Source: an uncultured Methanosarcinales archaeon
GTDB taxonomy: Archaea; Nanobdellota; Nanobdellia; Woesearchaeales; CAYSVS01
NCBI GenBank assembly: GCA_964589485.1
Contig: CAZPRK010000002.1
Span: 49,825-113,824 of the forward strand
Direction: 5' to 3'
DNA: 64,000 nt
This document shows positions 5,459-49,390 of this stretch, piece after piece. The translations under genes were made by a program, and so were the position numbers. The notes beneath the pieces are model-generated. The model did not search any database, was not told where the DNA came from, and was given only the letters and a program-made list of their open reading frames with translations. Position 1 is the first letter of the stretch. Every line of letters starts with the position of its first letter.

Positions 5459-6711
5459 ATAGAATTGAATTTATTAAATCTGTATTAGTTAAGTTAGATT
5501 CTAAATCAATTAAATATTGTATATTGAGAAATTATGATTTTCTTCTGCAGAATAGATTTAATGTAAGTAAAAGTGAAAGAAGTATTGATATTGTTGTAGA
5601 AAATATTGATTTGTTTGATAAAGTAATGATTGACTTAGGGTTTCAAAAAAGAAAACCTTCATTTTCATTAAAACATGTATCTTATTTTACATTTAATGGG
5701 TTAGATTTAGTTAGTTTTGATGTACAAATTAACGGAGTTCATTGGAATGATATGTGTTATTTTAATGTATTAGAAAATAGAGTAAAAAAATCTTTTTTTT
5801 ATGTTCCTTCAAATGATGACATGATTGTTATGTTAATATGTCATTCCATACTAGGAAAAAGGTTTTTTAAGCCAGAATATAAACAAATTATTTCTAATAC
5901 TAATTTTGGTCAAGATTACGTTCTAATTCAGTTGACTAAAGTTTTTGGAAATAATGCTAAAAGTATTCTTGATAAAATAAATAAGAATGATTTTAAATTG
6001 AATTTTTATTTACTTTGTTTAAAATTTATATTTAATAAAGTAAGCCATATTAAAATATTTATATTGTTATTTTTTAGATGGATTAAATGGAAGAAATTTT
6101 TATTTTCTAGGCCTTTAATAAGTTTTATTGGTCCGGATGGAAGCGGGAAAAGTTCTGCTACTAGGAATTTAATTAGCTTTTTAGAAAGTGAAAATAGACA
6201 AATATGTTATTTTTATTCAGGAAGAGGAAGAAAAAATATTCTGCCAATAACTAAATTGGGAAGAGTATATAAGAAAAAAGAAAAAAATATGAAACATAAC
6301 TATTTTTTTAAAAATACATTATATATAATAAGTTCATTTATGTTTACATTAGATTTATTGTTAAGATATGTGTTTAAAGTGTTTATTCCAAGGAGATTAG
6401 GGAAAATTGTTATTACGGATAGGTATTGTTCAGATATATATTTAATGAAAAATGTTCCTTTGTTTATGAAAAAGTTTTTTTTAAGTTTATTTCCTAAACC
6501 AAATTTAACTTTTTATTTGTACCAAGATACTTCAGTTTTATTAAAACGAAGACCGAATGAAGATTTAGATAATTTAAACTACCAATTATCAATGTATAAT
6601 GAACTAAGTAATTATATGGATGCAATTAAAATTAAAACTGAGAATTATGATAAAGATAAACTAAATATTTTAACTAAATCGTATTCATATATTTTAAAAG
6701 AATGGTTTTAA
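5455..6711 (+). CDS. Fusion protein: N-terminal putative nucleotidyltransferase-like domain + C-terminal thymidylate-kinase-like P-loop domain
   Basis: C-terminal Walker A FIGPDGSGKSS and IVITDRYCSDIY (the Tmk-like DRY motif). The N-terminal ~200 aa (KYCILRNYDFL...SIDIVV) are homologous to the N-terminus of the ORF at 22144-23439. Confidence 0.5.
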   Translation: MNRIEFIKSVLVKLDSKSIKYCILRNYDFLLQNRFNVSKSERSIDIVVENIDLFDKVMIDLGFQKRKPSFSLKHVSYFTFNGLDLVSFDVQINGVHWNDMCYFNVLENRVKKSFFYVPSNDDMIVMLICHSILGKRFFKPEYKQIISNTNFGQDYVLIQLTKVFGNNAKSILDKINKNDFKLNFYLLCLKFIFNKVSHIKIFILLFFRWIKWKKFLFSRPLISFIGPDGSGKSSATRNLISFLESENRQICYFYSGRGRKNILPITKLGRVYKKKEKNMKHNYFFKNTLYIISSFMFTLDLLLRYVFKVFIPRRLGKIVITDRYCSDIYLMKNVPLFMKKFFLSLFPKPNLTFYLYQDTSVLLKRRPNEDLDNLNYQLSMYNELSNYMDAIKIKTENYDKDKLNILTKSYSYILKEWF

Positions 6712-24697: not shown

Positions 24698-25369
24698 ATG
24701 GGTAGGGAAAATTATCAAATTTGTTCTTTGGTGCTTAATGCTCAAGAAATTGGTGCAAATAGAACTCCAATAAATCATGATGTTTTTGTTCATATTGATT
24801 TTGGATATGATAACGAACCAGTTTATTTGGAAAGAATTAAGCAAGCTTACAAAACAAGTGAAAACCCTATATTGTTACATTTTGATGATTCTAATTTTTC
24901 TAAATTTAACGGAGTAGAAACAATTAGACATAAAAAAGGTGCAACTGGTTATTTGAATAATTCTAATCTTGGATTATTTTTTGAAAAAACAAAAGGATTG
25001 CATCAAGGTGATTCTTTTAGAATTCATGGAGCTGCATTTGGAATGTGTCCTACTAATTTCATAATTGGACTTGCAGGTGCAATTAATTTTGGAGTGAATA
25101 TGTTTGATTTATATATGGATGAAACTAAAAAACGTGTAATTTCGGATTTAGAGTATGAATTAAATTATGGTGGAGTATTGTTAGATTCTAATTTTAGATT
25201 AGGTATAATGAATGATTCTGGGAATGCTTTGGCCGTTATTTCAGATTATTTTGATAGGTATGGCGAGAATATTCCTTTTTTTAAGTCAACAAGTATCGTT
25301 ACTGATGGAAATACTAAACTTTTTTCAAAAACTAAATTAAATAAAAAATTCATTAAATTTCTAAACTAA
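24698..25369 (+). CDS. Hypothetical protein with weak tRNA-guanine transglycosylase (TGT)-like motif
   Basis: IHGAAFGMCPTNFIIGLAGAINFGVNMFD resembles the TGT hGxGxP...GVDMFD barrel segment. I chose the start at the internal Met (MGRENYQ) because a TATA-like box, TTTTATAAAT, lies about 25 nt upstream (leaderless-type). The track start is 24632. Confidence 0.3.
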   Translation: MGRENYQICSLVLNAQEIGANRTPINHDVFVHIDFGYDNEPVYLERIKQAYKTSENPILLHFDDSNFSKFNGVETIRHKKGATGYLNNSNLGLFFEKTKGLHQGDSFRIHGAAFGMCPTNFIIGLAGAINFGVNMFDLYMDETKKRVISDLEYELNYGGVLLDSNFRLGIMNDSGNALAVISDYFDRYGENIPFFKSTSIVTDGNTKLFSKTKLNKKFIKFLN

Positions 25370-26390
25370 TAATATTATTTTCAACATTTATTTTTTTGTT
25401 TAAGAATAATTCACATGTTTTAATGTTATTTAATGTATGTTCTGTAATTTCTTCAACTTTTATTTTGCCTCCAAATATTGCAAGAAATGGGATTAAATTA
25501 TCAGCTAAATGTTTATCTACAGGACATTTTGATTTAATTATTTTAATAAGTTCATTTGAACATTTATTTCCAATATTTTCTGACTTTATTCCTTTCTTAC
25601 CATTAACATCTGCTCCTAATATTATTGGGTTTCTAAAATCAATTTCGTCATCATATAAACTATGTATTGCGAATAAAGTCATTCCTGAACCCGTACTTGA
25701 AGTATCTTGATATTCTTCAATTAAATTAATAGGATATTTTAATTTAGATAAATTTAATCTTGCAGTTTTACTTTGTCTTTCTGCAACTTTATTTTTTTCT
25801 AAATCTTTAGAAGCATGAGAAATTCCTTTAATTTGAATTAATTTTCCAATGTTAAGTAAATTAATAAATCCTTCAGGTTCTTCTTTAGGTTTAATGATAA
25901 TGTCAACATTACCTTGACCTTTAGGATAATAACCTCTTCTTAATAAAATAATTTCAATTTTTTCAACATATTTTTCTAGATGAGGAGCAAAAACTTCTTT
26001 GAAATATTCAATTGGCATTTGATTTAATCCATGAGTTCCTCCAGTAATGTTTAATGTAATTTTTTTCTTTCCACAAATAATTGGGAGAAGTAAAGATTGC
26101 ATTAATAAAGTAATACTTCCTGCAGTTCCAATGTCAATTTCCAAGTCTTGAGCTTCATAACTTTTAGGATAATATTCTAACTCTAATGATCCTAGACTAT
26201 CTCCTTTAACTTCAGCATTACAAAGTTTTTTTAAAGCATCAATACAAGTAAGATGTTGTGCTTTTAATCCTGGTTTATCTCTATTTTTTCTAATATTAAT
26301 GGCTTTGAAAGGTTTATTAATTAATGTTGATAAGGCTAATGCTGTTCTTATTACTTGTCCTCCACCTTCTTTTCCATCTACAATTAGCAT
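25353..26390 (-). CDS. rtcA: RNA 3'-terminal phosphate cyclase
   Basis: MLIVDGKEGGGQVIRTALALSTL...KPGLKAQHLTCIDALKKL aligns with the RtcA N-terminal signature (DGxxGEGGGQ...RxKPGL..QHL). The track's longer start at 26435 adds 15 aa with no homology support. Confidence 0.85.
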   Translation of the reverse strand: MLIVDGKEGGGQVIRTALALSTLINKPFKAINIRKNRDKPGLKAQHLTCIDALKKLCNAEVKGDSLGSLELEYYPKSYEAQDLEIDIGTAGSITLLMQSLLLPIICGKKKITLNITGGTHGLNQMPIEYFKEVFAPHLEKYVEKIEIILLRRGYYPKGQGNVDIIIKPKEEPEGFINLLNIGKLIQIKGISHASKDLEKNKVAERQSKTARLNLSKLKYPINLIEEYQDTSSTGSGMTLFAIHSLYDDEIDFRNPIILGADVNGKKGIKSENIGNKCSNELIKIIKSKCPVDKHLADNLIPFLAIFGGKIKVEEITEHTLNNIKTCELFLNKKINVENNIISLEI

Positions 26391-26471
26391 GAATTCAGGA
26401 TATTTAAATGATTTAATTAACTTTTGTAAAATCAAAACTATTATAAATGAGTTTTATTAGGGTTTAAGTTA

Positions 26472-27599
26472 ATGAGAAATAAATTATTTTATTCAGCTGT
26501 AGCAACTTTAATAGGGACTACAATGGGTGCAGGAATTCTTGGAATGCCTTATGTAATAGCTAAGTCTGGGTTTTTAACAGGGACTTTATTAATAGTATGT
26601 TTAGGGCTTTTAATGATGGGGCTTAATTTAGCTTTAGGTGAAGTAGTTCTTCGTACTAAAGGAAATCATCAACTTGCAGGGTATGCAGAAAGATATTTGG
26701 GGAAATGGGGGAAGTATTTAATGTCACTTTCTATGGTTATAGGATTATATGGTGCATTAATAGCTTACACTATAGCAGCTGGTCAATCTTTATTTGCGAT
26801 TTTTAACGTGGCAAGTCCTTTAATATTATCTTTAGTTTTTTTTGCTTTCGCAACTGTCGTAATTTATTATGGTATACATGTACTTGAAAAAGTAGAATTT
26901 GTATTTGGAATTATAATGTTAAGTTTTCTTGCAATTATGATTGCAGTTTCTTTAAAGTCTCCTAGTTTTTTAGTAGAAAATTTAATTACATTTAATTTTT
27001 ATAATTTACTTTTTCCTTTTGGAGTAATATTGTTTTCCTTTTTAGGAGCAATAGCTATTCCTGAAATGAAAGAAGAGTTAGCTTTTCATAAAGATCAATT
27101 AAAAAAAGCAATTATTATTGGAACTTTAATTCCATTAGTAACTTATTTTATATTTTCTTTATCTGTAGTTGGAGTTTTTGGCGTTAATACGACTCAAATA
27201 GTTACAATTGGATTTGGTGAATTATTTGGTTCTAATATGATTTTGTTGGCGAATTTGTTTGCATTAATTGCAATGATAACTAGTTTCACAGCTGTAGGAA
27301 TTGCATTATCTGAGTTTTATAATTATGATTGTAAATTTAGTAAATTTTATAGTTTTTTTTTAGTTTCTTTAGTAACTTTAATTTTTATTCTTTCTGGGAT
27401 TACTGACTTTACTAAAACAATAGGGTTTGTAGGAACTTTATCTGGGGGTATAGAAGGAATTCTCATAGTTTTAATGTTTTGGCAAGCACAGAAATTAGGA
27501 GATCGTGTTCCTGAATATACTTTAGGAAGATTTAAAGTACGTGGAGTAGCTTTAATATTAGTTTTCTTTGTTGGAATTTCGTACTTATTTTTTGGATAA
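26472..27599 (+). CDS. Amino-acid permease (aromatic amino acid/Trp-Tyr permease-like, HAAAP/APC type)
   Basis: 375 aa, about 11 TM. N-terminal GTTMGAGILGMPYVIAKSGF is typical of Trp/Tyr permease family transporters. A TATA-like box lies about 27 nt upstream, so the transcript is probably leaderless. Confidence 0.55.
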   Translation: MRNKLFYSAVATLIGTTMGAGILGMPYVIAKSGFLTGTLLIVCLGLLMMGLNLALGEVVLRTKGNHQLAGYAERYLGKWGKYLMSLSMVIGLYGALIAYTIAAGQSLFAIFNVASPLILSLVFFAFATVVIYYGIHVLEKVEFVFGIIMLSFLAIMIAVSLKSPSFLVENLITFNFYNLLFPFGVILFSFLGAIAIPEMKEELAFHKDQLKKAIIIGTLIPLVTYFIFSLSVVGVFGVNTTQIVTIGFGELFGSNMILLANLFALIAMITSFTAVGIALSEFYNYDCKFSKFYSFFLVSLVTLIFILSGITDFTKTIGFVGTLSGGIEGILIVLMFWQAQKLGDRVPEYTLGRFKVRGVALILVFFVGISYLFFG

Positions 27600-27619: not shown

Positions 27620-27631
27620 TATTTATAATAA
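27620..27631 (+). promoter_or_regulatory. Candidate archaeal TATA box/BRE for the tRNA gene
   Basis: ATTTATAATAAA lies about 30-40 nt upstream of tRNA position +1. A second TTTATATA is at 27601-27608. Confidence 0.35.
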
Positions 27632-27661
27632 AGTTTGACCAAAACACATTTATCTTACTAT

Positions 27662-27810
27662 GGGGGCATAGTATAACCTGGCTAGAATAGCTGGCTCCAA
27701 ACATGGAGCGATGAGGCTTCGGCCGATGATTAAGCCTTGGGATACACCAGTTGATTCCAATAACTATCGTATTGGAAGCTGAAATCTGGGTTCAAATCCC
27801 AGTGCCCCCA
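27662..27810 (+). tRNA. tRNA-Trp (anticodon CCA) interrupted by two introns: a canonical 37/38 intron (27701-27745, 45 nt) and a second intron in the variable loop (about 27754-27783, 30 nt); the mature tRNA is 74 nt with no encoded CCA
   Basis: Acceptor stem GGGGGCA / UGCCCCC with discriminator A73. T arm CUGGG-UUCAAAU-CCCAG. Anticodon stem GCUGG (27690-94) pairs with CCAGU (27747-51), with loop CUCCAAA (C32 U33 CCA A37 A38). Conserved G18 G19, A14, A21 and an A15:U48 pair are present. Intron 1 forms an hBHBh' motif: bulges AAA and ACA, central helix UCC/GGA, and intron helix CA..GG / CC..UG. Intron 2 forms a relaxed HBh' motif: the 8-bp hairpin UUCCAAUA/UAUUGGAA flanked by helix CAGU/GCUG, with bulges UGA and AAA. 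Confidence 0.6.
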
Positions 27811-27816
27811 TTTTTC
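27811..27816 (+). terminator. Oligo-T archaeal terminator after the tRNA
   Basis: A TTTTT run immediately follows discriminator A73. Confidence 0.4.
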
Positions 27817-27862: not shown

Positions 27863-30800
27863 ATGAATAGTGCTGGAACATTAGATAGAACTTTAACTGA
27901 CGTTATAAGTGAAAATTATAATTCTTTAATTCAAACTACTAAAGATAAAGTAAATAAGGTTGTTAAAACTTATCAAGGTGTTAAAAATAATTTATCTAAA
28001 ACACTTTCTGATGGATTTAAAAAAATAGGTTATCAAACATTAGGTGAACAAGCTCAAACTGCTTTAGGATATAATTCTATCGATGATGTTGAAGATATTA
28101 AAGTAGAACAAAAAAGTTTTTTAGAAAATGTTTGTCAAAGTACAATAAGTCCTATTACTGACTTTTTTCAAATTGGTAGAGTTGCAGGAAATAAAAAAGT
28201 TTTAGTAAATAATGCATTAAGTGCAATTAAAAAATACTCTAAAGAAAGTAATAGAAAAGTAACTGGAAGTGAAGCTGCAGATATAATTGAACAATATACG
28301 GGATCAAGTGAAGTTGCAAAAGAAGCAACTAAACAAATTGTTTCAAGTGAAGATTTTTCTTATGTTGATGATAGTGAAATAAAATCTAAAAATGTTACAA
28401 CTTATGGACCTTTATCTATATACAAAGCAGAAGGTGAAACTAAATTAGCTAAAGTCTTAGACTGGACTAAAAAGAATTTGCTTACAATGGGAAGTGAAAC
28501 TAAAACTTTAACTTTGCCTGCAATATATTCTTCAGGTGGTTTAGGAAGTTTAGGACATTATTTTATAGGAAGAGCTATTGTAGGAGCAGAAGTTGGAACT
28601 GTAGTTGGTGCAGCAAATGGATTAAAAGATAAAGTAAAAGAAAAATGTGGAACAAATAAAGTAACTGAATTTCTTGATCAAAACTTAACTCAATTAGAAA
28701 TGGCTTTATATTTTGCACACATTGGTGACTGGGAATTAGCAGGATTGTCAGCAAGTGGAGCTGTTGCTAACACTGTTGAGAAAAAAACTAAAAATGATTT
28801 ATTAAGTAAACTTGCAGGGTGTATTGCGAAAGGTTCAGAAGTTGTTTCCTATGGGGTTTTTGGATCAAGAGCATTAGATAGTGTATTAGCTGGAAAAGAA
28901 ATACCTTCTGTTGTTGGTAATTTATTTAAATTTTATACTCACGTTTCTAGTGGAGACAACGTTCCAGCTGTCTCCCTAGAAACTGATATTTTAACTAAAA
29001 CTAATATTGATAAAAATGAATTAACGGATGCTAAAGTACAACAAATAAAAGAATTATATGGAATGGCTGAGCCTGTAAAAAGGGAAAGTGTAGTTCCTCA
29101 AGAATTATCTGAAGCAGAAGTAATGCATATTAAACAATTGTATGGTTTGGGTGAAAATGTTAATGCTAAAGTTTCTAATCATAATGAACCTAATCTTCAA
29201 AAAGGTTCTAATCAAGATGGTAATGGAAATAATGACGATCCAGGTTTTATTGAAGTAGATGGTGATAGAGATCATGAATTGAAATTAAAGGAATATGTAT
29301 TAGATTTTAATCAAGCCAAAACTAAAGAAGAATTTTCACAAATCAATATTTCCGCTTTTGATTATTTTGAAAAAAATAGAAAAGTAATGAATGATTCTAT
29401 AGAAAGTAGCTTTATTGATTTTGGAAAAAAAGTTTTTTTAGCTTCTAAACTTGACGAATCTTCTTCTAAATTTAGTCAAGCTTTATTGTTACCAGAAAAT
29501 GTAAATTATTCTCATCTGATTCAAAGTTATGAATCTAATCAAAAATATTTAGAAGATTTATTAAATTCAAGAGATGATTTAGATGAAGATATTAAACAAA
29601 TAACTGATACTTATAATATTTTTAAAGTATTAGAAAATGTTTCTTCTGAGAAGCACCAGTCTTTTATTGAATCTGCTCAATTAATTAATTCATCAAGAAA
29701 TGTTTTAGATAATAAGGGATTTGATAATTTTATGTTTGAATTGTTTCAAGCAGGTGTTTTGGGTAAAGATTGGTTTATGAAAGATTCATTGACAATTAAA
29801 AAATTAAAATATTTTGATGAAATGTTTACTTATTTTGGTGAAGAATTAACTAAATTACCCGAATTAAAAGAGTATTCTGTTTTTTCTGAAACTTATGAAA
29901 AATTACAACAAGTACATAAAATTGTAACTGGAACTAATGTGGCTAATTTACCAGTTGATCAATTGAGTACACCTGAGTATGATTTATTAAATGTGAAACT
30001 TGATCTTGAAAGAATATCTAATAGGTCATTAACTTATTTAAGAAGAGGTATAGATAGTAGTCATGATTTTGTTAGGATTGTATTGTTGCCAAATATTGCT
30101 AATTATGAATTAAATAATTCTGATACTCTTCAAGAAAATATTGAACTTAATATTGCAAAGCTTTATGCTACTGAAGAAATAAAAAGTAAAGTAAAAAGTG
30201 AGTTAGGAGATTTAGATATGCCTATTTCTGAAATTAAAACTAATAGAAATATTTCATTAGATAGGGTATACAAAGAAACTCAACCAATTACTTTGGAAGA
30301 ATTAATAAATAAACGTGCAAATAAACATTTAGGTAATTTAAGTCAAGGGAATTTTTCTTTTTTCTCTAGAGTATATTATAGTTTAAATAAACTTAATCTT
30401 GGTTTAGACAATGCTGAATTAGATAAACTTCATTATGAGTTAAGTGATTTTTTTAATACTGTAATGGATGCTCCTGAATTGTCTAAAGTTAAACCAAAAA
30501 TATCTGGAACTAATGGGGTAATAGATACTGTTGAAGAATATGCTGAATCTATTAAAGCAATAGAGGACGTAACTCATGAAGTTCATAAGCATAGTAAAAG
30601 TTTTACAAATTTAGCAAAAGATACAATTTTTTCAACTAATCTAGGACAATTAAGTTTATTTGGAAATTTATTAGGAATACCAAACACGTTTGAATTATTA
30701 AAAGGGTTAAGGACAGTAAGAAATTTTGAAAGAAATGATTATGATCCTATTAAGACTGTGAAATCTGTATTAATAGATGATCCGATAAGAAGTGCTCAAG

Positions 30801-31090
30801 CGATTTTGAAAATTCCAAGTAAATTAAAACACATGGTTTTTGATAATGAGAGTTATAGTTTAAATGGAGTTCCTTTAACTACATTAGATTCTTCAGAAGG
30901 GGCAAAAATAGTAGGTATAAATTTATTAGATGTTGTTAGTCAAATGTATGATAAAAAAAGTTTAACTATGGCGAATAGTTTAATTTCAACATATGTTTCT
31001 GGAACTATGCATCGTGATTATCTTGATTGGTATGTTGGGCATATAGAAAATTCAGATAATTTGGAAGATATTTTGAAAAGATTGTTGTAG
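27863..31090 (+). CDS. Large hypothetical protein (1075 aa), soluble, no recognisable domain
   Basis: Long uninterrupted ORF beginning 52 nt after the tRNA. It has Gly/Ala-rich segments (SSGGLGSLGHYFIGRAIVGAEVGTVVGAANG) and no TM helices. Confidence 0.6.
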   Translation: MNSAGTLDRTLTDVISENYNSLIQTTKDKVNKVVKTYQGVKNNLSKTLSDGFKKIGYQTLGEQAQTALGYNSIDDVEDIKVEQKSFLENVCQSTISPITDFFQIGRVAGNKKVLVNNALSAIKKYSKESNRKVTGSEAADIIEQYTGSSEVAKEATKQIVSSEDFSYVDDSEIKSKNVTTYGPLSIYKAEGETKLAKVLDWTKKNLLTMGSETKTLTLPAIYSSGGLGSLGHYFIGRAIVGAEVGTVVGAANGLKDKVKEKCGTNKVTEFLDQNLTQLEMALYFAHIGDWELAGLSASGAVANTVEKKTKNDLLSKLAGCIAKGSEVVSYGVFGSRALDSVLAGKEIPSVVGNLFKFYTHVSSGDNVPAVSLETDILTKTNIDKNELTDAKVQQIKELYGMAEPVKRESVVPQELSEAEVMHIKQLYGLGENVNAKVSNHNEPNLQKGSNQDGNGNNDDPGFIEVDGDRDHELKLKEYVLDFNQAKTKEEFSQINISAFDYFEKNRKVMNDSIESSFIDFGKKVFLASKLDESSSKFSQALLLPENVNYSHLIQSYESNQKYLEDLLNSRDDLDEDIKQITDTYNIFKVLENVSSEKHQSFIESAQLINSSRNVLDNKGFDNFMFELFQAGVLGKDWFMKDSLTIKKLKYFDEMFTYFGEELTKLPELKEYSVFSETYEKLQQVHKIVTGTNVANLPVDQLSTPEYDLLNVKLDLERISNRSLTYLRRGIDSSHDFVRIVLLPNIANYELNNSDTLQENIELNIAKLYATEEIKSKVKSELGDLDMPISEIKTNRNISLDRVYKETQPITLEELINKRANKHLGNLSQGNFSFFSRVYYSLNKLNLGLDNAELDKLHYELSDFFNTVMDAPELSKVKPKISGTNGVIDTVEEYAESIKAIEDVTHEVHKHSKSFTNLAKDTIFSTNLGQLSLFGNLLGIPNTFELLKGLRTVRNFERNDYDPIKTVKSVLIDDPIRSAQAILKIPSKLKHMVFDNESYSLNGVPLTTLDSSEGAKIVGINLLDVVSQMYDKKSLTMANSLISTYVSGTMHRDYLDWYVGHIENSDNLEDILKRLL

Positions 31091-31173
31091 TTACTAAACA
31101 GTAATGTAAAAAGTTAGTTTTATAAGTAACTTATCTTTACTTGCAAAAATGATTCAATTCGGAGGGTTTCACA

Positions 31174-32154
31174 ATGGAAGAAATTAAAGATCAATTATAC
31201 ACTGATGCAAAAAATCAAGTTATACACTATTTAAAACAAATTCATACTACTAGTACTAATGATAAAAAAGGTAATAGAGCAGTTAAAAAATTAATGACAA
31301 ATGTTTATGAACCTATTATAAAAGCTATGATTCAAATTCCTGAGGTTTCTTCTGTTTTAGTTAATGGTGAAAATATAACAAGTACTCTTCAATTTACTCA
31401 AGCTGATGCTTTGGTTCAATTAGATGATGCTTTAAGATATTCTGGGGATGATGATTCAATATTTGCTTGTAAAGTTGAAACTGAAAAATACGCGAAAGTT
31501 TTAGATGTAGATCCTACGATAGATTCTATTATTGTTGGTGGATTTAATACAGGCAATTTAGATAATATGATTAGAAATTTTCAAGATATTGCACAAAGAA
31601 ATGAAAGTATCGATAATAATGATTTACCAACATATGAACCTTCTTTTGAACAAGAATCTCAAACTAAGGATCTTGTTGAAATTTCAAATGAGCCAAAACA
31701 TTACGATGTTCAAGAAATTGTTCAAGGTATGCAAGGTCAATTTGAAGTTGTTTTACATGATATGAAGGAACAACATACCATTGAATTAAATGATTATAAA
31801 AGAGCTAATAGAAAAAATTTAGTTGCTTTAGGAGTTTTAGGGATTATTGGTTTAAGTTATTTAGGCTATTCAAATGCAAAATTATCTGATGAAGTTAAAG
31901 ATTCAAATAACGAAACAAAGCAAAAAGTTACTGCTATGAAAGAAGAATCAGTTCAGACTCTAAGCTCAGTTTCTCAAACTGCAACAGATTTGGCAACTTC
32001 TTCTCAAGCAAGAATTGATAAAACTACAAGTACTGCACAACTAATTATGAGTGATTCGTATAAGTTACGTAAAAAGCTTAGAGAAACTATGCAGAAAAAT
32101 GATAATGATATGAATGATTTATTTGATTTAATGGGAACTCAAGCTGCTAGGTGA
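31174..32154 (+). CDS. Hypothetical protein (326 aa) with a single central TM helix and coiled-coil-like flanks
   Basis: RBS CGGAGGG 8 nt upstream. Hydrophobic segment LVALGVLGIIGLSYLGY near aa 213-230. No known domain. Confidence 0.55.
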   Translation: MEEIKDQLYTDAKNQVIHYLKQIHTTSTNDKKGNRAVKKLMTNVYEPIIKAMIQIPEVSSVLVNGENITSTLQFTQADALVQLDDALRYSGDDDSIFACKVETEKYAKVLDVDPTIDSIIVGGFNTGNLDNMIRNFQDIAQRNESIDNNDLPTYEPSFEQESQTKDLVEISNEPKHYDVQEIVQGMQGQFEVVLHDMKEQHTIELNDYKRANRKNLVALGVLGIIGLSYLGYSNAKLSDEVKDSNNETKQKVTAMKEESVQTLSSVSQTATDLATSSQARIDKTTSTAQLIMSDSYKLRKKLRETMQKNDNDMNDLFDLMGTQAAR

Positions 32155-32161
32155 TTTTATT

Positions 32162-34567
32162 GTGCAACCTCAAGTTAAAGTTCAATATGATTTGAAACCT
32201 ATTGGATCTACATCAAATAACAATTCAGTTACTGTTGCATTTGCAGGGAAAGGATCATCAGGTAAAACTTTTTTAACTTATTTGTTATTTGAAAGGTTAT
32301 CTGAAATAAAACCACAAGATATGTTATATTTATCCTTTGATGGTAAATGTGGTTATAGTGAATATAAACAAGTTATTTCTAAAAAAACTAGTTTTGATGC
32401 AATAGATGATTGTGTTAGTATTAATGGAAATGTTAATGGATTAAAATTACAAGGATATCTTGAAAAGGTTAGACTTGAAAATTCAACTTTACATACTTTG
32501 CTTGGAGGTAGTGGAAAAGATGAAGTCTATGAATGGGATGAAAATAAGTTACATAAATTAATTAATTTGTTTCAATATCTGAAACCAAATTATAGTGTTA
32601 GGATTTTTGATTTCGCAGGTGGATGGAACTATGCATCTAAAAGTATACCTTGTGCTATGGCTGATTCGGTCATATTAATGGCTTCAGAAAGTCAAGGCTT
32701 AACTGAAATTAAGCAAAGATTAGAATTCACAGTTGAGGAAGATTTTAGAAACAGTTTAAGACTTACTTTAAATCAAATGATTGAAGAAGAAACTATTGTT
32801 TCTAATGTAATAAAATATGCAAAAGTTTATGCAAAATTAATGTCAAATAAAAATTTAAAATTTGGTGATGATGATTTTATGGAAGAAGCTGAAAAAGAAT
32901 ATAAAGCTATTTTTAAAGAAGATTCTAGAAATTTAAGAAATTTTTTAGTACATTATTTTAATAATAGGGAAGTTGAATCTGTGACTTACATTAAGTTAAC
33001 AAATTTATCTCCTGAAGTAGTACCTGATTTAAGGAAAGCAGATATAATTGGGAATTATAGACGTATTGTTAAGCCTGAATATAATTTACATTACGATGAA
33101 ATTTTAAAATTTAGTCAATTAACTAAACAAAGTCCTGCTCAAATTATTTCACAATTGTCTGCATTAGCAAGTATTGGTGTTACGCCTGAACAAATTAACA
33201 ATGGACTGTTTAAGAAAACTTTAGATGATGTTTTAGATTCTGATTTGCTTCTAACTAAAAATAAAGTTATAGAAGTATTGATGAAAGAAATTGATGTAGG
33301 TATTGTTCAAGAAAACTTAACTTTAGAGGAGTTAGCAAGATCTTTTGCAAGGATTGGTATTTCTGAAGATTATTTATTAAATGAATTAAAACAAAAATTA
33401 AAACAAGATAAAGTGCGTGAGGTTAGTTCCGGGGAAATAATGGAAACTGAAGCAGAATTAAGCACTTTAGAAGATAATATAGATTCTTTAGTTAAACAGA
33501 GCTTAAATCAAGTTCAATTTGAAAGATTAGGAGAAACATTTGAAGATAGGTTTTTTTATTATCGTCAATTAAAATCTAAACCAAAATTTAAAGAGTTAAT
33601 TAAAGAGTATGTTGAATTAGATGAAGAGTTAAGAGATATGAAAAATCAAGGTTCTGGTTTTTTAAATTCTTTAAATTTAGTAACAAAGGATTCCGGTTTG
33701 CAGTATATAAACAGCTTGTTTAAACACACGAGAAATGCGTATAATGAAATACTTAGAAGTAAAACTAAAGTTAGCACAGGAAAAACAAATTTTTTTTTTA
33801 TTGCAAATAAAGTTATGCCTTCTAAAGAATTAAGTGATATTGGAACTTTATTGAATGATGAATATTCTGAAAAAAAAGATTCTCATCCGCAATTTTTTAG
33901 TGGAGATGAAAGTCGAGTTGAAAAAGGCGTGTTTGCATTAATTGCAGAAGTGTATTCTTCATTTAAATCATCCAAAAATGGAGTTCTTCAAGATTGGGTT
34001 AATGAAAGAAGTAAAATACGTCAGAAAAATAAAGGGCTTTTTGGTATTGATTCTAAAGTGGCACATAAAAGTACTGTTGAATTTTTTAAAAATGAATTAG
34101 AAAGATATTCTAGTTTTAGAGGATTAGACTCAAAGTTCGATGAACGTTTGGAAACATATGTATCAGCAATACAATCTGGTGAAATTAGTGAGGTTAGGAA
34201 AGACTTTTTTGAAGATTTCATAAGCATTTTAGAGTTTAATTATCTTCATGATTTATGGGAGAAAAAAATTCAAAAAATTTTGGAAAAACCTATCATAAAA
34301 CAATCCGGTTTAGATGTTGAATATTTAGGATGCATACCTTTTGATTATGATATGGAAGATGTGTTTACGCGAACTGATATATTGAAAACTAATGAATTAG
34401 TTCGAGATAAAATTGATTTTATTATTGATAAAACAATAGGTGCTGTTTCAAGAAAAAAAGCAACTATTGGAGAAATAGTAGTTGAAAAAGAAAGTGCATT
34501 TAGTTTAGGAAAATTGGGAGCTGGGTTTAGAAATTTTGGAAAAAGTTTAGGCTTTTTTTCGAAATAG
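32162..34567 (+). CDS. Hypothetical 801-aa protein with N-terminal MinD/ParA-type deviant Walker A ATPase domain and about 600-aa uncharacterised C-terminal region
   Basis: VAFAGKGSSGKTFLTYLL matches the KGGxxGKT deviant Walker A with the signature lysine. Walker B-like VRIFDFAGG is followed by ADSVILMASES. GTG start at 32162, with no in-frame ATG nearby. Confidence 0.55.
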   Translation: MQPQVKVQYDLKPIGSTSNNNSVTVAFAGKGSSGKTFLTYLLFERLSEIKPQDMLYLSFDGKCGYSEYKQVISKKTSFDAIDDCVSINGNVNGLKLQGYLEKVRLENSTLHTLLGGSGKDEVYEWDENKLHKLINLFQYLKPNYSVRIFDFAGGWNYASKSIPCAMADSVILMASESQGLTEIKQRLEFTVEEDFRNSLRLTLNQMIEEETIVSNVIKYAKVYAKLMSNKNLKFGDDDFMEEAEKEYKAIFKEDSRNLRNFLVHYFNNREVESVTYIKLTNLSPEVVPDLRKADIIGNYRRIVKPEYNLHYDEILKFSQLTKQSPAQIISQLSALASIGVTPEQINNGLFKKTLDDVLDSDLLLTKNKVIEVLMKEIDVGIVQENLTLEELARSFARIGISEDYLLNELKQKLKQDKVREVSSGEIMETEAELSTLEDNIDSLVKQSLNQVQFERLGETFEDRFFYYRQLKSKPKFKELIKEYVELDEELRDMKNQGSGFLNSLNLVTKDSGLQYINSLFKHTRNAYNEILRSKTKVSTGKTNFFFIANKVMPSKELSDIGTLLNDEYSEKKDSHPQFFSGDESRVEKGVFALIAEVYSSFKSSKNGVLQDWVNERSKIRQKNKGLFGIDSKVAHKSTVEFFKNELERYSSFRGLDSKFDERLETYVSAIQSGEISEVRKDFFEDFISILEFNYLHDLWEKKIQKILEKPIIKQSGLDVEYLGCIPFDYDMEDVFTRTDILKTNELVRDKIDFIIDKTIGAVSRKKATIGEIVVEKESAFSLGKLGAGFRNFGKSLGFFSK

Positions 34568-34678
34568 TTGTTACTCTTGAGGGATGGTGTTATGCGAAAG
34601 CTTTATATACGACTTGGTCTTAACACAACTATTTTAAAGTAGTTATGGGGTGTTTTAACTTTACGGAGGGTTAATCAA

Positions 34679-35491
34679 ATGAAATATTCAAATATTGCAA
34701 AAAATGTTATACTTGCTGCGGCTTTATATGCTCCTGTTAATGGTGCTGAATTACAAAAAGTTGGTCGTACTGCTATTTTAGGTTCTACAAATCATGGTGT
34801 TTATCAAGTTGAAAAAATGCCAGAAGCTATTCAAAGCAAATTAAAAGGTAAGACTATATTAAATAAATATACTAAAGATAAGGATGCTTTTATTCGAACA
34901 CAAGATAAAAGTGGTAACCAAGAATATTTTAAAGTTATTGATACTGTTTCTACTCCAAGTTCAACTGGAACTACAGTAGAAAGTAAAGTTGTTGGAGCTA
35001 ATGGTTCTAATAAAATTATGAACGAAAAGATAGTTTCAGCTTATGCTAGATCTGCTCAAACTTATTCTTCAATGGAAGAAGGCCCAAAAAAAGATTTATT
35101 GAAAACTAAATTAACTGGAGATTATAAAACTATTAGTGAAATCGTTGATGGTGGAGATCAGAAAAAGTTAGATGAAGCACATGCTACTTTAGATTCTAGA
35201 GTTCTTAACTCAAGTACTGAAGAAGAAAAACAAAATTTTTGGAAAAAACATTTTGGCTTCGATACTTGGCAAAAAGGAGCTAAGACTATTGTAGCTGGTG
35301 TTGTAGGTTATAAATTGTTAGACTCTTTATTTGGCGGAAGCGGTGGAAACAGCGGAAGTTCAAATGTAAAAACTCCTACTTTACCTTTACCTGGTGAACA
35401 ACCTGGTAACAAAGGTCAAGGTTTTGGTGGATTTACTGGTGGTTCAAAAGATCATAATGATTCAAATCAAGGACCAGCTCACGATTTGTAA
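34679..35491 (+). CDS. Secreted/surface protein with N-terminal signal-like helix and Gly-rich C-terminus
   Basis: N-terminal MKYSNIAKNVILAAALYAPVNGAE. C-terminal GGSGGNSGSS...GQGFGGFTGGSKDHND. RBS CGGAGGG upstream. Confidence 0.55.
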   Translation: MKYSNIAKNVILAAALYAPVNGAELQKVGRTAILGSTNHGVYQVEKMPEAIQSKLKGKTILNKYTKDKDAFIRTQDKSGNQEYFKVIDTVSTPSSTGTTVESKVVGANGSNKIMNEKIVSAYARSAQTYSSMEEGPKKDLLKTKLTGDYKTISEIVDGGDQKKLDEAHATLDSRVLNSSTEEEKQNFWKKHFGFDTWQKGAKTIVAGVVGYKLLDSLFGGSGGNSGSSNVKTPTLPLPGEQPGNKGQGFGGFTGGSKDHNDSNQGPAHDL

Positions 35492-35508: not shown

Positions 35509-38500
35509 ATGAAAAATCTAAAATCAATTACACTATTATTTTTTATTTTATTTTCATTAAGTGTATCAGCAAATCATCAACCTGAGTTTATTACTGGGTC
35601 AATTGACATTGATACAAATGAATTAATAAATGGAAATGTAGTTTTATTAAATTCTGAAACTGGAGAAATTGAGACTAGAGGTGGTTCAAGAAATCGTTTT
35701 TATGATGTTGATCTTGATACTTTGTATTATGTAGTTTATGGTGCGGATGATTATAACACGGATACTGATATTGTTTATTTTGATTCTAGAATTCCTTTTT
35801 GTACTGATGAGTCTTGTACTTTTCAAAGAGAACAAATTATAACTAAATGTGATATGAACTATGCACAAAATGCATTTGAATGTAGTGTAAGCGATGGAAC
35901 TGGAACTTCTTATTTTGTATATGATATTGAAGAAAATGATTATAAAAGAGTAAATTATTTGAAACATTTTGGAAAAAGTGACGAATTTTTAATTAATGTT
36001 AGGGCTGAGAATGAAGATGGTATGGTTGACCATATCGATAGTGCAATTATAAATGGAATTAAAACTTCAGGAAGAAATGCATATTTTATTGTATCATCTG
36101 ATACTAAGTATGATTTAACAATTGATCAATCTGGACATGAAAAATTTAGTCAAGAACTTTATTTTGATTCTGATATAACAGCTTGTGAAGGGAATTGTGA
36201 TCACGTAAGTAATGGTTATGAAACTACTTGTTGGAATGTTGCATCTGATAGAAAAAAATGTGAAGTTTCAAATGGATTAGTTTATTATCTTGATGGAAAT
36301 ATTGAAATAAATTTTGAATCAATTTTACAAAAAAAACAAACTCAAACTATTAATTTTAAAACTGGATCCTTAAGTGCAACAACTGACGAAATGTTACAAT
36401 CGGATATTGCGATTCTAGGAGAAAGAGAATCTAGTGTTAATACTTTTGACTTACCATTAAATGAAGTTGTTACAATAACTCATTTTGCAAACGGGTATCA
36501 AAATTATGTAGATTTTATTTATGTAGACTCTGGTATTTTATCTTGTAATGGGTCAACATGTGATGTTGAAAGTAATGGATTTACAACTACTGGTGTATTT
36601 AATAATAATGAAAATGCTTGGGAATTTACTGTAACTGATGTTAATAGTATTTCTAGATCATATGTTTATGATTTAGATGATAATGTTGTTAAAAGAGTTG
36701 TAAGAATGATTCCTGCTTTACGTTTTGAATATGATTTTATTACTGGAGTTCAAGATGTTGATACTGGTGAAATGATAGAGTTTCTTTCAGTATTAACGGA
36801 TAGTAAGAATAACATAGTTAGAGCTGAAGATGATGAAACTTCTGTTGCATATGATATAGAACTAGATACTTTATATTATATAACTTATTCTGCAGAAAAT
36901 TACGGATCAGAAACTGATGTTTTATACTTTGATTCAGGAGTTCCTACTTGTGTAAATGGAGATTGTGAATTTGAAAGTAACGGTGTATCAACTTCTTGTA
37001 GTAAAAATGATGCAGAAAATGCTTTAGAATGTAGCATAACTGATGGAACTGGTACTGATTATTATGTATATGATTTTGATGATAGTAATTTTAAAAGAAT
37101 AAACTATTTGAAAAAGAATAGTGCTGCTGATCAATTTAATTTATTGATTAATGGAAAAAATGAAGCAAATGGTGTTTTTTTTGATGATTTTACTGTTACT
37201 TTAGGGGGTATAACTAAATCAACTAATTTCGAACATGGTAATGAGGTTCATTTTATTATTTCACCTGATACTTTATATTCTGCAAAAATAAGTAAGAATG
37301 ATGGTTTTGGTGTATTTGAAGATTTAGCTATAAATTATTACCTTGACTCTAGGTTAACTACTTGTGGTAATGCTTGTGAATTGGAAGAAAATGAAGCAGG
37401 GTATAGTACTTCTTGTTCTGGAAGTACTTGTAGTGTATTTAAAGATGGTAGCGAAATAAGTAACTTTGTTTTCGATACTGGTATTAATGCTGCTTGGGAT
37501 ACTGTTTCGCTAAAACCAATTAAAGCAGATTATTACAGATTTAGAACAGGGGCATTAAATGAGTTTAATGACGAAATTGATGACATTACTGTTGAAATTA
37601 ATGGAGTTAGTAAGCAAAATGATAAACCTGAGTTAACAGTTCCTTCAAATGAAGCTTTTGGAATAAAATATACTCACAAAGATTATGAAGATTTGAATGA
37701 TTTTTTATATGTAGATGAAAAAATTATTACTTGTGGTGGGAATGATTGTACTTTAACTAGTGGGGAATTTACAACTACTGGAACATATAACAATAATGAA
37801 AGAGCTTGGGAATTTACAGTAAGTGATGATAATGGAATATCAAGATCTTTTGTTTATGATAATCAAGGAATAATTAAAAGAATTGTTAATATGGATGTAA
37901 AAGACGGAGCAGATATAATTAAGCCTACTTTTAGTAATCCTATGCCTGCGCAAGATTCTTTAGTTACTGAAGAACCTTTTTGGATAACTATAGATGTTAC
38001 TGATAATGTTGGTATAAATGAAGGTTCTGCAGATTTATGGTTAGATGGAAGATATTTTAATCCTATTTTTGAAAATGGACAAATTAAATATTTAGTTGAT
38101 AGTAATATTTTATTAAAAGGCGAGCATAGAGTTGAAGTTCGTATAGAAGATACTAATGATAATGATGCAAGTTTTGATTGGGAATTTAATTTAGATTTAA
38201 GACCGAATGTAGATTTTACAATAAGTCCTAATCCTGCTAATATAAATGAGTTTATCACATTCGATGCATCTTTATCAAATGATGATGGAACAATTGTTTC
38301 ATATGTTTGGGATTTTGGAAATGGGGTACAAGCTTCTGGAATAGAACCTGAGTATCTTTATTCAAATTCAGGAAATTATGATGTAACTTTAACTGTTACT
38401 GATGACGCAGGAACAAGTTCACAGTTAACGAAAACTGTTGTTGTATTAAGTACAAATCAAGCACCTGTTGCGGAAGCACAGGCTGATAAAACTATAGTTT

Positions 38501-39843
38501 TAGTGAATGAGAATATTCAGTTTGATGATGATTCCTTTGACCCTGATGGAAATATTGTAAGTTATTTCTGGGATTTTGGAGATGGAAGTACTTCAACTTT
38601 AGCTGGACCTTTATACAGTTATAGTCAACCTGGACAGTATACTGCAATTTTAACAGTAACTGATAATGATGGTGCAACTAATAATGATAGTATTACAATT
38701 ACTGTAAATGCTCAAGCAAATCAACCACCTATTGCTGTAGCAAAGGCGGATAAAACTACTGTAAGAGTTAATGAAAATATTCAATTTGATGCAACTGATT
38801 CAAGTGATCCTGAAGATGACTTTTTAGTTTATGCTTGGTTTTTTGGAGATAATAAATTAAGTTTTAGTAAGACGCCAATTCATTCATTTGATGATGAAGG
38901 AATTTATAACGTAACTTTAACTGTTACAGATACAAGTTTAAATGTAGCAAGACAAAATATTATAATTACTGTAGTTGAAGATGATTTTCCTATTGCAATT
39001 GCAAAAGCTGATAAGACTACTGTTAAAGTAGGAGAAGTTGTTAATTTTGATGCATCTGAATCTACAGATGATGGAACAATTGAATCTTATCTATGGAATT
39101 TTGGAGATAATACTTTTTCAGATAAAGAACAAGTAGGACATACTTTTACAAGTCCGGGTGGATATATAGTATCTCTTACTGTTACTGATGAAAGTGGTCA
39201 ATCTAGTACAAGTAAAATAGGCATAACTGTAACTGAATCTGAAGTAAGTCCAACTGCTAATGCAAAAGGACCTTATAGTGGATTTGTAAATGAAATAATT
39301 AACTTCGATGGAAGTTCTTCATTAGGTGATATTGTAAAATATCAGTGGACTTTTGGAGATGGTTCTGTGGCTGAAGGATCTCAAGTATCTCATACTTATG
39401 GGAACGTGGGAAGATTTGTAGTTACTTTAACAGTTACTGATCAAAATGGGTTAACGCATACTTCTCAAACAGAAGCAAATGTAGATGCTCGAATTATAGC
39501 GCAACCTCAACCTAGTAAGGAAAAGAGAGAATTAAAAATCTCAAGAATTTCATCTTTAGGTGGAGGAATTGCATATGCTGGAGATGTTACATCTTTCAAA
39601 GTTAAGCTAGAAAATACTGGTGACTTGGATTTAGAAAATGTTAGAATTAAAGCATTTATTCCTGAGTTATTTGTATATGACAGTACTGGAACTTTCGATT
39701 TAGATGATGGAGATAGTGAAACTAAACAGTTACTATTGAATGTTCCTGGTGATGCACAATCAGATAGTTACTTGGTTAAGTTTAGTATTAGCCAAGGAGG
39801 AGAAAATATTAGGACTAAATATAGGTATATTTTCATAGAATGA
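35509..39843 (+). CDS. Giant secreted adhesin-like protein (1444 aa) with duplicated N-terminal modules, about six PKD domains and a CARDB-like C-terminal domain
   Basis: Signal peptide MKNLKSITLLFFILFSLSVSA. A tandem about 400-aa super-repeat (DTLYYVVYGADDYNTDTDIVYFDS... and DTLYYITYSAENYGSETDVLYFDS...). Repeated PKD units (FDASLSNDDGTIVSYVWDFGNGV...YDVTLTVTDDAGTSS, five or more copies). Confidence 0.8.
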   Translation: MKNLKSITLLFFILFSLSVSANHQPEFITGSIDIDTNELINGNVVLLNSETGEIETRGGSRNRFYDVDLDTLYYVVYGADDYNTDTDIVYFDSRIPFCTDESCTFQREQIITKCDMNYAQNAFECSVSDGTGTSYFVYDIEENDYKRVNYLKHFGKSDEFLINVRAENEDGMVDHIDSAIINGIKTSGRNAYFIVSSDTKYDLTIDQSGHEKFSQELYFDSDITACEGNCDHVSNGYETTCWNVASDRKKCEVSNGLVYYLDGNIEINFESILQKKQTQTINFKTGSLSATTDEMLQSDIAILGERESSVNTFDLPLNEVVTITHFANGYQNYVDFIYVDSGILSCNGSTCDVESNGFTTTGVFNNNENAWEFTVTDVNSISRSYVYDLDDNVVKRVVRMIPALRFEYDFITGVQDVDTGEMIEFLSVLTDSKNNIVRAEDDETSVAYDIELDTLYYITYSAENYGSETDVLYFDSGVPTCVNGDCEFESNGVSTSCSKNDAENALECSITDGTGTDYYVYDFDDSNFKRINYLKKNSAADQFNLLINGKNEANGVFFDDFTVTLGGITKSTNFEHGNEVHFIISPDTLYSAKISKNDGFGVFEDLAINYYLDSRLTTCGNACELEENEAGYSTSCSGSTCSVFKDGSEISNFVFDTGINAAWDTVSLKPIKADYYRFRTGALNEFNDEIDDITVEINGVSKQNDKPELTVPSNEAFGIKYTHKDYEDLNDFLYVDEKIITCGGNDCTLTSGEFTTTGTYNNNERAWEFTVSDDNGISRSFVYDNQGIIKRIVNMDVKDGADIIKPTFSNPMPAQDSLVTEEPFWITIDVTDNVGINEGSADLWLDGRYFNPIFENGQIKYLVDSNILLKGEHRVEVRIEDTNDNDASFDWEFNLDLRPNVDFTISPNPANINEFITFDASLSNDDGTIVSYVWDFGNGVQASGIEPEYLYSNSGNYDVTLTVTDDAGTSSQLTKTVVVLSTNQAPVAEAQADKTIVLVNENIQFDDDSFDPDGNIVSYFWDFGDGSTSTLAGPLYSYSQPGQYTAILTVTDNDGATNNDSITITVNAQANQPPIAVAKADKTTVRVNENIQFDATDSSDPEDDFLVYAWFFGDNKLSFSKTPIHSFDDEGIYNVTLTVTDTSLNVARQNIIITVVEDDFPIAIAKADKTTVKVGEVVNFDASESTDDGTIESYLWNFGDNTFSDKEQVGHTFTSPGGYIVSLTVTDESGQSSTSKIGITVTESEVSPTANAKGPYSGFVNEIINFDGSSSLGDIVKYQWTFGDGSVAEGSQVSHTYGNVGRFVVTLTVTDQNGLTHTSQTEANVDARIIAQPQPSKEKRELKISRISSLGGGIAYAGDVTSFKVKLENTGDLDLENVRIKAFIPELFVYDSTGTFDLDDGDSETKQLLLNVPGDAQSDSYLVKFSISQGGENIRTKYRYIFIE

Positions 39844-48386: not shown

Positions 48387-49035
48387 TGTTTGGGTTGTGG
48401 TTCCGGCTTGTAATGAGGAACAACATATTTCTTTAGTTCTTAATGATATTAAAAAATATACTAATAATATTATTTTGGTTGATGATGGAAGTAAAGATAA
48501 TACTGTTAAAATTTCTGAAGGTTTAGGTGTAATTGTATTAAAACATATGTTTAACTTAGGAAAGGGCGCAGCATTAAAGACAGGGTGTGACTTTGCTTTA
48601 AAGAAAAAGGCAAATAAAATTATAGTTATTGATTCAGATGGACAACATAAACCTGAAAATATTCCTGATTTTTTGAAAGCTCTAGAAACTAATGATATTG
48701 TTTTTAGTTATAGGACTCAAAGGGATGTTATGCCTTTAGTATTACGTTTTGGGAATTGGGTTATTAATACTGTATCTTATTTCTTATTTGGATTAAAATT
48801 AAAAGATACTCAATGTGGATACAGAGGGTTTACAAGTAATGCATATAAATTAGTTAAATGGGAAGCAGTTGATTATTTTATGGAATCTGAGATGGTTGCA
48901 AAAGCTGGAAGAGCTAAATTAAAGTATGTTCAAATTCCAATTGATACAATTTATAGTAACAAATATAAGGGAACTACTGTTTTAGATGGAATAAGGATTG
49001 TATTAAACATGTTTATTTGGAGGTTATTTAAATGA
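48373..49035 (+). CDS. GT2 dolichyl-phosphate sugar synthase-like glycosyltransferase (DPM1/AglD/AglJ-like)
   Basis: VVVPACNEEQHI...IILVDDGSKDNT; 220 aa. Confidence 0.8.
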   Translation: MDSNDVWVVVPACNEEQHISLVLNDIKKYTNNIILVDDGSKDNTVKISEGLGVIVLKHMFNLGKGAALKTGCDFALKKKANKIIVIDSDGQHKPENIPDFLKALETNDIVFSYRTQRDVMPLVLRFGNWVINTVSYFLFGLKLKDTQCGYRGFTSNAYKLVKWEAVDYFMESEMVAKAGRAKLKYVQIPIDTIYSNKYKGTTVLDGIRIVLNMFIWRLFK

Positions 49036-49358
49036 TATTAGGAATACAAATGGTTGGTATTTTATTTGGGTTACTTATGTTATATTTTGCATTTATTCAT
49101 TTTAAAAGAAAAGAAATGAAAAATTTTGAATTTTCAATTTGGTTTATTGTTTGGATTTTTTTTGTATTTTTAACAATTTTCCCAAATAGTTTAGATTTTA
49201 TAGCTACAACTTTAAATTTAGTAAGAACAATGGACTTTTTAACAGTTATGGGTTTTTTATTTTTGATAGGTTTAACTTATCATAATTATTTTGTAACTAA
49301 AAAGAACGAAAAGAATATTGAGAAAATTGTACGAGAAATATCATTAAAAGATAAGTAA
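49032..49358 (+). CDS. Small 3-TM membrane protein (DUF2304-like partner of the Dol-P glycosyltransferase)
   Basis: 108 aa with three hydrophobic helices. ATGA overlap with the upstream GT2 gene. Confidence 0.45.
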   Translation: MILGIQMVGILFGLLMLYFAFIHFKRKEMKNFEFSIWFIVWIFFVFLTIFPNSLDFIATTLNLVRTMDFLTVMGFLFLIGLTYHNYFVTKKNEKNIEKIVREISLKDK

Positions 49359-49390
49359 AGTTTATAAATTGCTTTTTCTTTTTAATTCTC

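Follow-up and report, generated by a model that had tools for sequence, protein, structure and literature searches.

A Woesearchaeota-type tRNA-Trp(CCA) gene with two short introns, at positions 37/38 and 45/46

The 64-kb stretch of archaeal DNA analysed here (the window) contains, at positions 27662 to 27810, a locus that we regard, with good support, as a genuine archaeal tRNA-Trp gene carrying two short introns of the protein-spliced kind. The explanation that best accounts for the observations as a whole is a functional tRNA-Trp(CCA) of Woesearchaeota type with two bulge-helix-bulge (BHB) introns, in which intron 2, at the non-canonical position 45/46, would be a recent gain and intron 1, at the canonical position 37/38, would carry a K-turn guide. 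We put the probability of this reading at about 85%. Because multi-intron tRNAs, the 45/46 position, and disrupted tRNA genes in DPANN genomes have already been published, the gene is an ordinary example of low novelty. The features of the locus and of the two genes directly upstream are as follows.

25353 to 26435, reverse strand: RtcA (RNA 3'-terminal phosphate cyclase)
26472 to 27599, forward strand: Trp/Tyr-family permease
27662 to 27810, forward strand: tRNA-Trp(CCA) gene, 149-nt precursor body (RF00005 and sequence reading)
27662 to 27700, forward strand: exon 1, tRNA positions 1-37, comprising the acceptor 5' strand, the D arm, GCUGG, and the loop nucleotides CUCCAA (sequence and covariance-model alignment)
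27701 to 27745, forward strand: intron 1, 45 nt, canonical position 37/38 (BHB scan; ARAGORN after removal of intron 2)
27704 to 27731, forward strand: putative K-turn and guide inside intron 1 (architecture common to six diverged introns)
27746 to 27753, forward strand: exon 2, tRNA positions 38-45, A CCAGU UG (sequence, covariance-model alignment, and in-silico splicing)
27754 to 27783, forward strand: intron 2, 30 nt, non-canonical position 45/46 (top-ranked BHB in the locus; excision yields a UGAU variable loop)
27784 to 27810, forward strand: exon 3, tRNA positions 46-73, comprising AU, the T arm, UGCCCCC, and A73 (sequence, covariance-model alignment, and in-silico splicing)

The Rfam covariance model for tRNA, RF00005, matches 27662-27810 on the forward strand with 35.1 bits (gathering score 29; model positions 1-71). 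This match is the sole Rfam hit within the 64-kb window, and no further tRNA or tRNA fragment appeared when all of the window was scanned with Rfam at permissive settings; elsewhere in the genome there may be a second tRNA-Trp gene without interruptions. In the alignment the four arms are kept, and the extra sequence falls into two blocks: the anticodon loop is longer by 45 nt, and 31 nt are inserted in the variable region. The acceptor stem (GGGGGCA/UGCCCCC, 7 bp), the T arm (CUGGG-UUCAAAU-CCCAG), and the 7-nt anticodon loop CUCCAAA on the stem GCUGG/CCAGU can be read directly from the sequence; three of these elements, the acceptor stem, T arm, and anticodon loop, had been recognized by an earlier sequence-only reading of this 149-nt locus, whose coordinates coincide exactly with those of the RF00005 hit. 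The discriminator base is A73, and the D arm (GUAU/GAAU) has an A12.A23 mismatch and is also found in the relatives L008, L011, L012, L015, L022, and L023. The 3' CCA end is not encoded; an oligo-T run (27811-27815) lies directly 3' of the gene, and there is a TATA-like AT-rich stretch on its 5' side (27620-27635). Exon 2 consists of the 3' strand of the anticodon stem and the first two nucleotides of the variable loop. The anticodon loop and the T arm are separated by 84 nt (27702-27785) as against 9 nt in the mature tRNA, and the 75 extra nucleotides are the sum of 45 and 30. The sequence-only reading was right about this excess; its counts of 79 nt instead of about 15 are loose.

The gene is missed by standard finders: ARAGORN in default mode reported zero tRNAs in the 64-kb window, and its intron mode gave the wrong isotype. 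When intron 2 is removed in silico, ARAGORN calls Trp(cca) with a 45-nt anticodon-loop intron, as had been proposed for position 37/38, and when both introns are removed it calls a 74-nt Trp(cca). The parse into a two-intron Trp(CCA) gene yielding a 74-nt tRNA, which had been put forward from the sequence alone, is upheld by the two insertions in the Rfam alignment, by the ARAGORN calls after splicing, by the UGAU loop of relatives, and by the BHB scan described below. That reading had also named the covariance model as its own test, since another anticodon or a single intron would have spoken against it; the model aligned CUCCAAA as the anticodon loop and showed two insertions. The locus sequence is fully identical across six marine metagenome contigs.

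The host genome has about 26% G+C. Archaeal markers in the window include aIF5B, AglB/STT3, an archaeal ATPase, and HerA (Pfam), and the homologues of the neighbouring permease are labelled Woesearchaeota. It should be mentioned that several of the relatives' bins are titled "Methanosarcinales", while their tRNA-Trp genes match bins titled Woesearchaeota or Nanoarchaeota. The order RtcA-permease-tRNATrp is also present in the relative L023 (2911-5212), whose permease is 55% identical. The presence of a Trp-family transporter beside tRNA-Trp, and of an RNA-end-processing enzyme beside an intron-bearing tRNA, may be a coincidence. Directly 3' of the tRNA (27863-35491) lie four ORFs of 1075, 326, 801, and 270 aa without a Pfam match, the 801-aa one with the P-loop GKGSSGKT, and these are followed by a 1444-aa PKD-repeat protein (35509-39843). 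In L023, a structured-looking segment (5430-5515), ending in ...GGGUAUCCGACGCCCCA-UUUU, lies about 20 nt 3' of the tRNA-Trp; it bears a loose resemblance to the 3' end of a tRNA followed by a terminator, and may represent a piece of a tRNA or some small RNA. Elsewhere, positions 1-25000 and 45393-50841 of the window are devoted mostly to glycan synthesis (NeuB-type sugar synthases, glycosyltransferases, a flippase, a fusion of AglB/STT3 with a PPIase domain, and two ORFs whose C-terminal domain resembles thymidylate kinase), and a 914-aa ORF at 50897-53641 on the forward strand joins a pyruvate kinase barrel, a PUA-like domain, ATP sulfurylase, and APS kinase in an unusual glycolytic/sulfate-activation fusion.

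The splicing motifs were ranked with a script that scored all cut-site pairs in the locus for a 4-bp central helix H, 3-nt bulges cut after nucleotide 2, and the outer helices h and h'. The pair 27753/27754 and 27783/27784 ranks first (H 4/4, h' 8 bp, h 0), and boundaries of 27755-27784 are equally possible. In this motif, H is formed by CAGU of C40-U43 (27748-27751) with GCUG (27778-27781), all four positions being paired, so that the recruitment of the 3' strand of the anticodon stem that had been proposed earlier is found at exactly these nucleotides. The bulges UGA (27752-27754) and AAA (27782-27784) are 3 nt each, and h' is an 8-bp helix between UUCCAAUA (27755-27762) and UAUUGGAA (27770-27777), closed by the loop 27763-27769. 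Since the outer helix h is lacking (0 bp), the motif is of the relaxed HBh' type, with h' as its flanking helix. Motifs as strong as this one number about 235 on one strand of the window, when all positions and lengths of 14-120 nt are counted, which corresponds to a rate of about 3.4e-5 per position and length; given this rate, and because only a handful of boundary pairs restore a variable loop of 4-5 nt, a chance origin is unlikely. Excision leaves the variable loop UGAU, the same as in the relatives L008 and L011, which have no intron 2, and together with the top rank in the BHB scan this agrees with the 30-nt second intron at 45/46 that had been proposed from the sequence. Intron 2 has no second copy in the window, and neither has the tRNA 3' end, whose repetition would mark the integration site of an element, even with three mismatches allowed. 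The window has 40 ORFs that are 150 aa or longer; among the 39 of these that were scanned with Pfam, there was no tRNA-intron endonuclease, L7Ae, Nop5, or fibrillarin.

Intron 1 has a less regular motif. Its central helix (27695-27698 with 27740-27743) is paired at three of four positions, with a C32.U mismatch, the bulges are 27699-27701 and 27744-27746, h' is CAUGG/CCUUG (27702-27706 with 27735-27739) with a U.U mismatch, and the anticodon stem serves as h; owing to a repeated A, boundaries of 27702-27746 are equally possible. In the relatives the central helix has two of four pairs, and L008, L011, L022, and L023 keep the 7x7-nt loop geometry together with an h' that covaries. Because a strict hBHBh' motif has a fully paired 4-bp central helix, that of intron 1 is a relaxed hBHBh', and its earlier description as a good hBHBh' motif was overstated.

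Constrained folding of the naked RNA gave the following energies for the two motifs.

Full precursor, MFE: -56.3 kcal/mol
Full precursor, BHB2 conformer (intron 2 motif): -55.5 kcal/mol
Full precursor, both BHB cores with the anticodon stem open: -47.6 kcal/mol
Full precursor, cloverleaf with BHB1 (intron 1 motif): -46.3 kcal/mol
Intron 1 removed, BHB2 fold (the MFE): -38.5 kcal/mol
Intron 1 removed, cloverleaf: -37.2 kcal/mol

By these values, the BHB2 fold is predicted to be thermodynamically accessible in the primary transcript, and the cloverleaf with BHB1 lies about 10 kcal/mol above the MFE. The sequence-only reading had called the two folds mutually exclusive and had concluded that splicing is ordered or involves a conformational switch. 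On the folding model, the BHB cores exclude each other only on the condition that intron 1 depends on the anticodon stem for its outer helix h; strictly they do not, as the conformer with both cores at -47.6 kcal/mol illustrates. Likewise, a refolding step would indeed be needed, but the energies dictate no splicing order; BHB2 is near the MFE in the precursor and is the MFE after removal of intron 1. Refolding of exon sequence into a BHB motif is usual for non-canonical archaeal introns (reviewed in PMC4090602), and the recruitment of the anticodon stem is therefore not a new principle. In the proposed route, the motif of intron 2 would borrow C40-U43 of the anticodon stem and use the intron's own 8-bp hairpin as the outer helix, the archaeal splicing endonuclease would cut each 3-nt bulge after nucleotide 2, and an RtcB-type ligase would join the exons, in whichever order, into the 74-nt tRNA with its UGAU variable loop.

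Relatives of the gene were collected with a degenerate pattern of the 5' half, which gave eight genome and eight metagenome loci, and through a homologue of the permease, which gave one more, syntenic locus (L023). Fifteen relatives have the same 5' half and the CCA anticodon, with or without introns, and the variable loop is 4 nt in every relative found. Their introns are distributed as follows.

No intron: L007, L010, L012, L014-L017, L019-L021
Intron 1 only: L008 (Woesearchaeota BM511), L011/L018, L022, L023
Intron 1 and a 31-nt intron at 53/54 (H 4/4, h' 10 bp): L009
A 111-nt intron at 59/60 only (H 4/4, h 5 bp): L013

An intron at 45/46 is absent from all 16 loci of the pattern scan, genome and metagenome together, none of which comes from the window's own population. 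The syntenic orthologue L023, in which the RtcA-permease-tRNATrp order is kept, has intron 1 only and the variable loop GGAU; among four permease homologues examined, synteny with the tRNA is kept only in this one (P0003/L023). Because this orthologue lacks intron 2, the intron is probably, to judge from the sequences, a recent lineage-specific gain. Genes of this family thus hold zero to two introns, the second at 45/46, 53/54, or 59/60, which indicates that non-canonical introns turn over rapidly outside the Thermoproteales. The tRNA-Trp genes of L009 (CAZGQD010000014.1, 5644-5794, reverse strand) and L013 (CAYQPU010000005.1, 909-1093, forward strand) are not reported by the Rfam tRNA model at the gathering threshold and, because they do not reach that score, would look "missing" in routine annotation. 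The "missing" tRNAs of DPANN genomes have been ascribed to undetected disrupted genes (PMC5829648), and these Rfam misses explain apparently missing tRNA-Trp genes in DPANN bins.

The junction of intron 2 (27751-27785) has a further property. It fits a K-turn, with G45-A27754 beside the 8-bp stem on one strand and, on the other, the stem followed by GCU, GA (27781-27782), and AAU. The same signature is seen at the 53/54 intron of L009 (tRNA positions ~99-133), where G53-A is followed by the stem and then by CAG-GA. Both GA dinucleotides occur in only 0.4% of 4,203 background BHB-like motifs of the window; the signature GA-[stem]-NNN-GA was noted post hoc, in two cases that are both introns with an h' helix, and it overlaps the BHB nucleotides themselves.

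Other readings of the locus have to be weighed against a two-intron gene. The 30-nt hairpin could be a recent insertion that is never removed, leaving a decaying and non-functional tRNA-Trp. Intron 2 is known from one population only (six identical contigs) and is absent from the syntenic L023; since the six contigs are identical and the nearest non-identical permease homologue in the searched collections is only 55% identical, covariation offers no evidence of selection on its helices, and the D stem has its A.A mismatch. However, the A12.A23 mismatch is common to many intact relatives, the flanks of the insertion stand in an exact 3-4-3 bulge-helix-bulge register whose excision gives the variable loop of the relatives, and the acceptor stem, T arm, anticodon, A73, and oligo-T terminator are all intact. 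Moreover, L009 has an equivalent clean intron in its T arm, where retention would destroy the tRNA. We consider decay unlikely. Somewhat less likely still is that the 30-nt segment stays in the mature tRNA, where it would form a variable arm of unusual length, perhaps with the K-turn just described: with intron 1 removed, the cloverleaf that carries this arm lies just 1.3 kcal/mol higher than the BHB2 fold, and the junction has the GA beside the stem on the 5' strand and stem-GCU-GA on the 3' strand. Against this, tRNA-Trp belongs to class I, with the 4-nt variable loop found in all of the relatives, a variable region of 34 nt would exceed the known class II arms, and the same GA...NNNGA signature is present at the T-arm insertion of L009, which cannot be retained.

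A different isotype was suggested by ARAGORN itself, which with the option -i on the raw precursor returned a tRNA-Pro(UGG) with a single 75-nt intron and placed the anticodon loop at UUGGAA, within the hairpin's 3' arm. For this parse to work, the anticodon stem must be reduced to 4 bp, two of them G.U, and the 26/27 junction must be shifted, and its 75-nt boundaries are unranked as a BHB. The covariance model sets CUCCAAA as the anticodon loop, and the CCA anticodon is shared by the fifteen relatives with the same 5' half. On stem quality, covariance-model alignment, and homology we rejected tRNA-Pro(UGG), whose probability we regard as negligible, and retain the two-intron tRNA-Trp(CCA).

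The two-intron gene has one more layer, inside intron 1, where the sequence-only reading had correctly seen a GGC-UUCG-GCC tetraloop hairpin. We identify this hairpin as stem I of a conserved K-turn, within a module that has the following parts on the forward strand.

27704 to 27709: putative guide UGGAGC, complementary to G31-A36; then G at 27710
27711 to 27714: box-D-like AUGA
27715 to 27724: stem I, GGC-UUCG-GCC
27725 to 27727: 3-nt bulge GAU
27728 to 27729: GA
27730 to 27731: UU

Six introns, those of the window, L008, L009, L011, L022, and L023, share the pattern AUGA-[stem I]-(G/A)AU-GA-N-U. Stem I is conserved by position and not by sequence, covarying as GGC/GCC, GACAA/UUGUC, GUGC/GCAU, GAC/GUC, GGC/GCC, and GGCC/GGCU. 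A K-turn is defined by stem I, a 3-nt bulge ending in a conserved U, and tandem G.A pairs (PMC1865073), and all three elements are present here, with an A-U pair standing in for the usual C-G of boxes C and D. Upstream of AUGA, an invariant GGAG(C/A)-N pairs with G31-A36, in a guide-target duplex of only 5-7 bp, so that C34 is opposite the fifth nucleotide; the resulting anticodon-guide hairpin belongs to the predicted MFE of the precursor. The module has a single K-turn with box D before box C, and no guide for U39 was found in it. Because the bipartite architecture is lacking, it is not a canonical box C/D sRNA, and the Rfam C/D families gave zero hits at E values up to 10. We also tried introns 1 and 2 as one bipartite C/D RNA with two K-turns, and rejected this arrangement since the spacer is 22 nt of exon and not a guide.

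From sequence comparison, the module looks like a reduced, permuted, single-K-turn relative of the methylation guide in the euryarchaeal tRNATrp intron. Its K-turn would be a site for L7Ae, and the guide would most likely direct 2'-O-methylation of C34 before splicing. The conserved module suggests that intron-guided Cm34 extends beyond the Euryarchaeota in a reduced and permuted form, and such a guide would bear on the minimal RNA needed for a box C/D particle. A more speculative idea, which we hold to be rather doubtful, is that the tRNATrp intron acts as a minimal circularly permuted cis guide for Cm34, and that the junction K-turns of the non-canonical introns alternate between L7Ae-bound and BHB states. 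Methylation would then rely on the anticodon-guide hairpin, the dominant feature of the predicted precursor fold, and the L7Ae/BHB alternation, if true, would connect the gain of introns with mobile box C/D-like elements.

The closest known counterpart of intron 1 is the sR50-type intronic box C/D sRNA of Euryarchaeota, which resides in the same host gene and at the same intron position. The euryarchaeal tRNATrp intron guides both Cm34 and Um39. In the published alignment of these guides, the sequence reads ...GUUGGAGCA CUGA, and in the Thermoplasmata ...CUGGAACU AUGA (PMC2584109, Additional file 4). As in intron 1, the sR50 type has a UGGAGC-N core followed by box D (CUGA, CCGA, or, in the Thermoplasmata, AUGA), with the fifth nucleotide facing C34, and a tandem-GA K-turn with a conserved U beside the GA pair. 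Unlike the sR50 type, intron 1 has a single K-turn, neither a second box pair nor a U39 guide could be found in it, and its order is guide-D-hairpin-C, with the "terminal stem" closed into a hairpin, whereas the sR50 type runs from C to D. The introns retrieved here are 45-52 nt long, as compared with about 55-103 nt in the Euryarchaeota.

As for the gene as a whole, it resembles the other multi-intron tRNAs of the Archaea in its combination of a 37/38 intron with a second one at a published hotspot, in its relaxed HBh' motif with 3-nt bulges, a 4-bp central helix, and recruited exon sequence, and in a patchy distribution among close relatives that is consistent with recent gain. Multi-intron tRNAs with non-canonical BHB introns reportedly occur in Thermoproteales, Nanoarchaeota, ARMAN-2, and other DPANN, in studies attributed to Marck & Grosjean 2003, Sugahara et al. 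2008, and Fujishima et al. 2011. Archaeal tRNA genes can hold up to three introns, the positions 45/46, 53/54, and 59/60 are established for non-canonical ones, and HBh' and hBH motifs are known (PMC4090602). In Pacearchaeota, Woesearchaeota, and other DPANN, disrupted tRNA genes are associated with an endonuclease having the L3 loop (PMC5829648). The host described here differs from those of the published multi-intron tRNAs in being a low-GC (~26%), marine, Woesearchaeota-type archaeon, and the combination of 37/38 and 45/46 in tRNA-Trp was not found among the retrieved relatives; there is no difference in principle. ARMAN-2 offers a close parallel: its tRNAPro has two introns, and its endonuclease cleaves relaxed motifs (PMC3239211). 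Its pre-tRNAPro(GGG), likewise from a DPANN archaeon, forms two BHB introns from overlapping tRNA-body sequence (PMC3239211); there the introns, at 53/54 and 59/60, are both in the T loop, whereas in the present gene one is canonical and the other lies in the variable loop.
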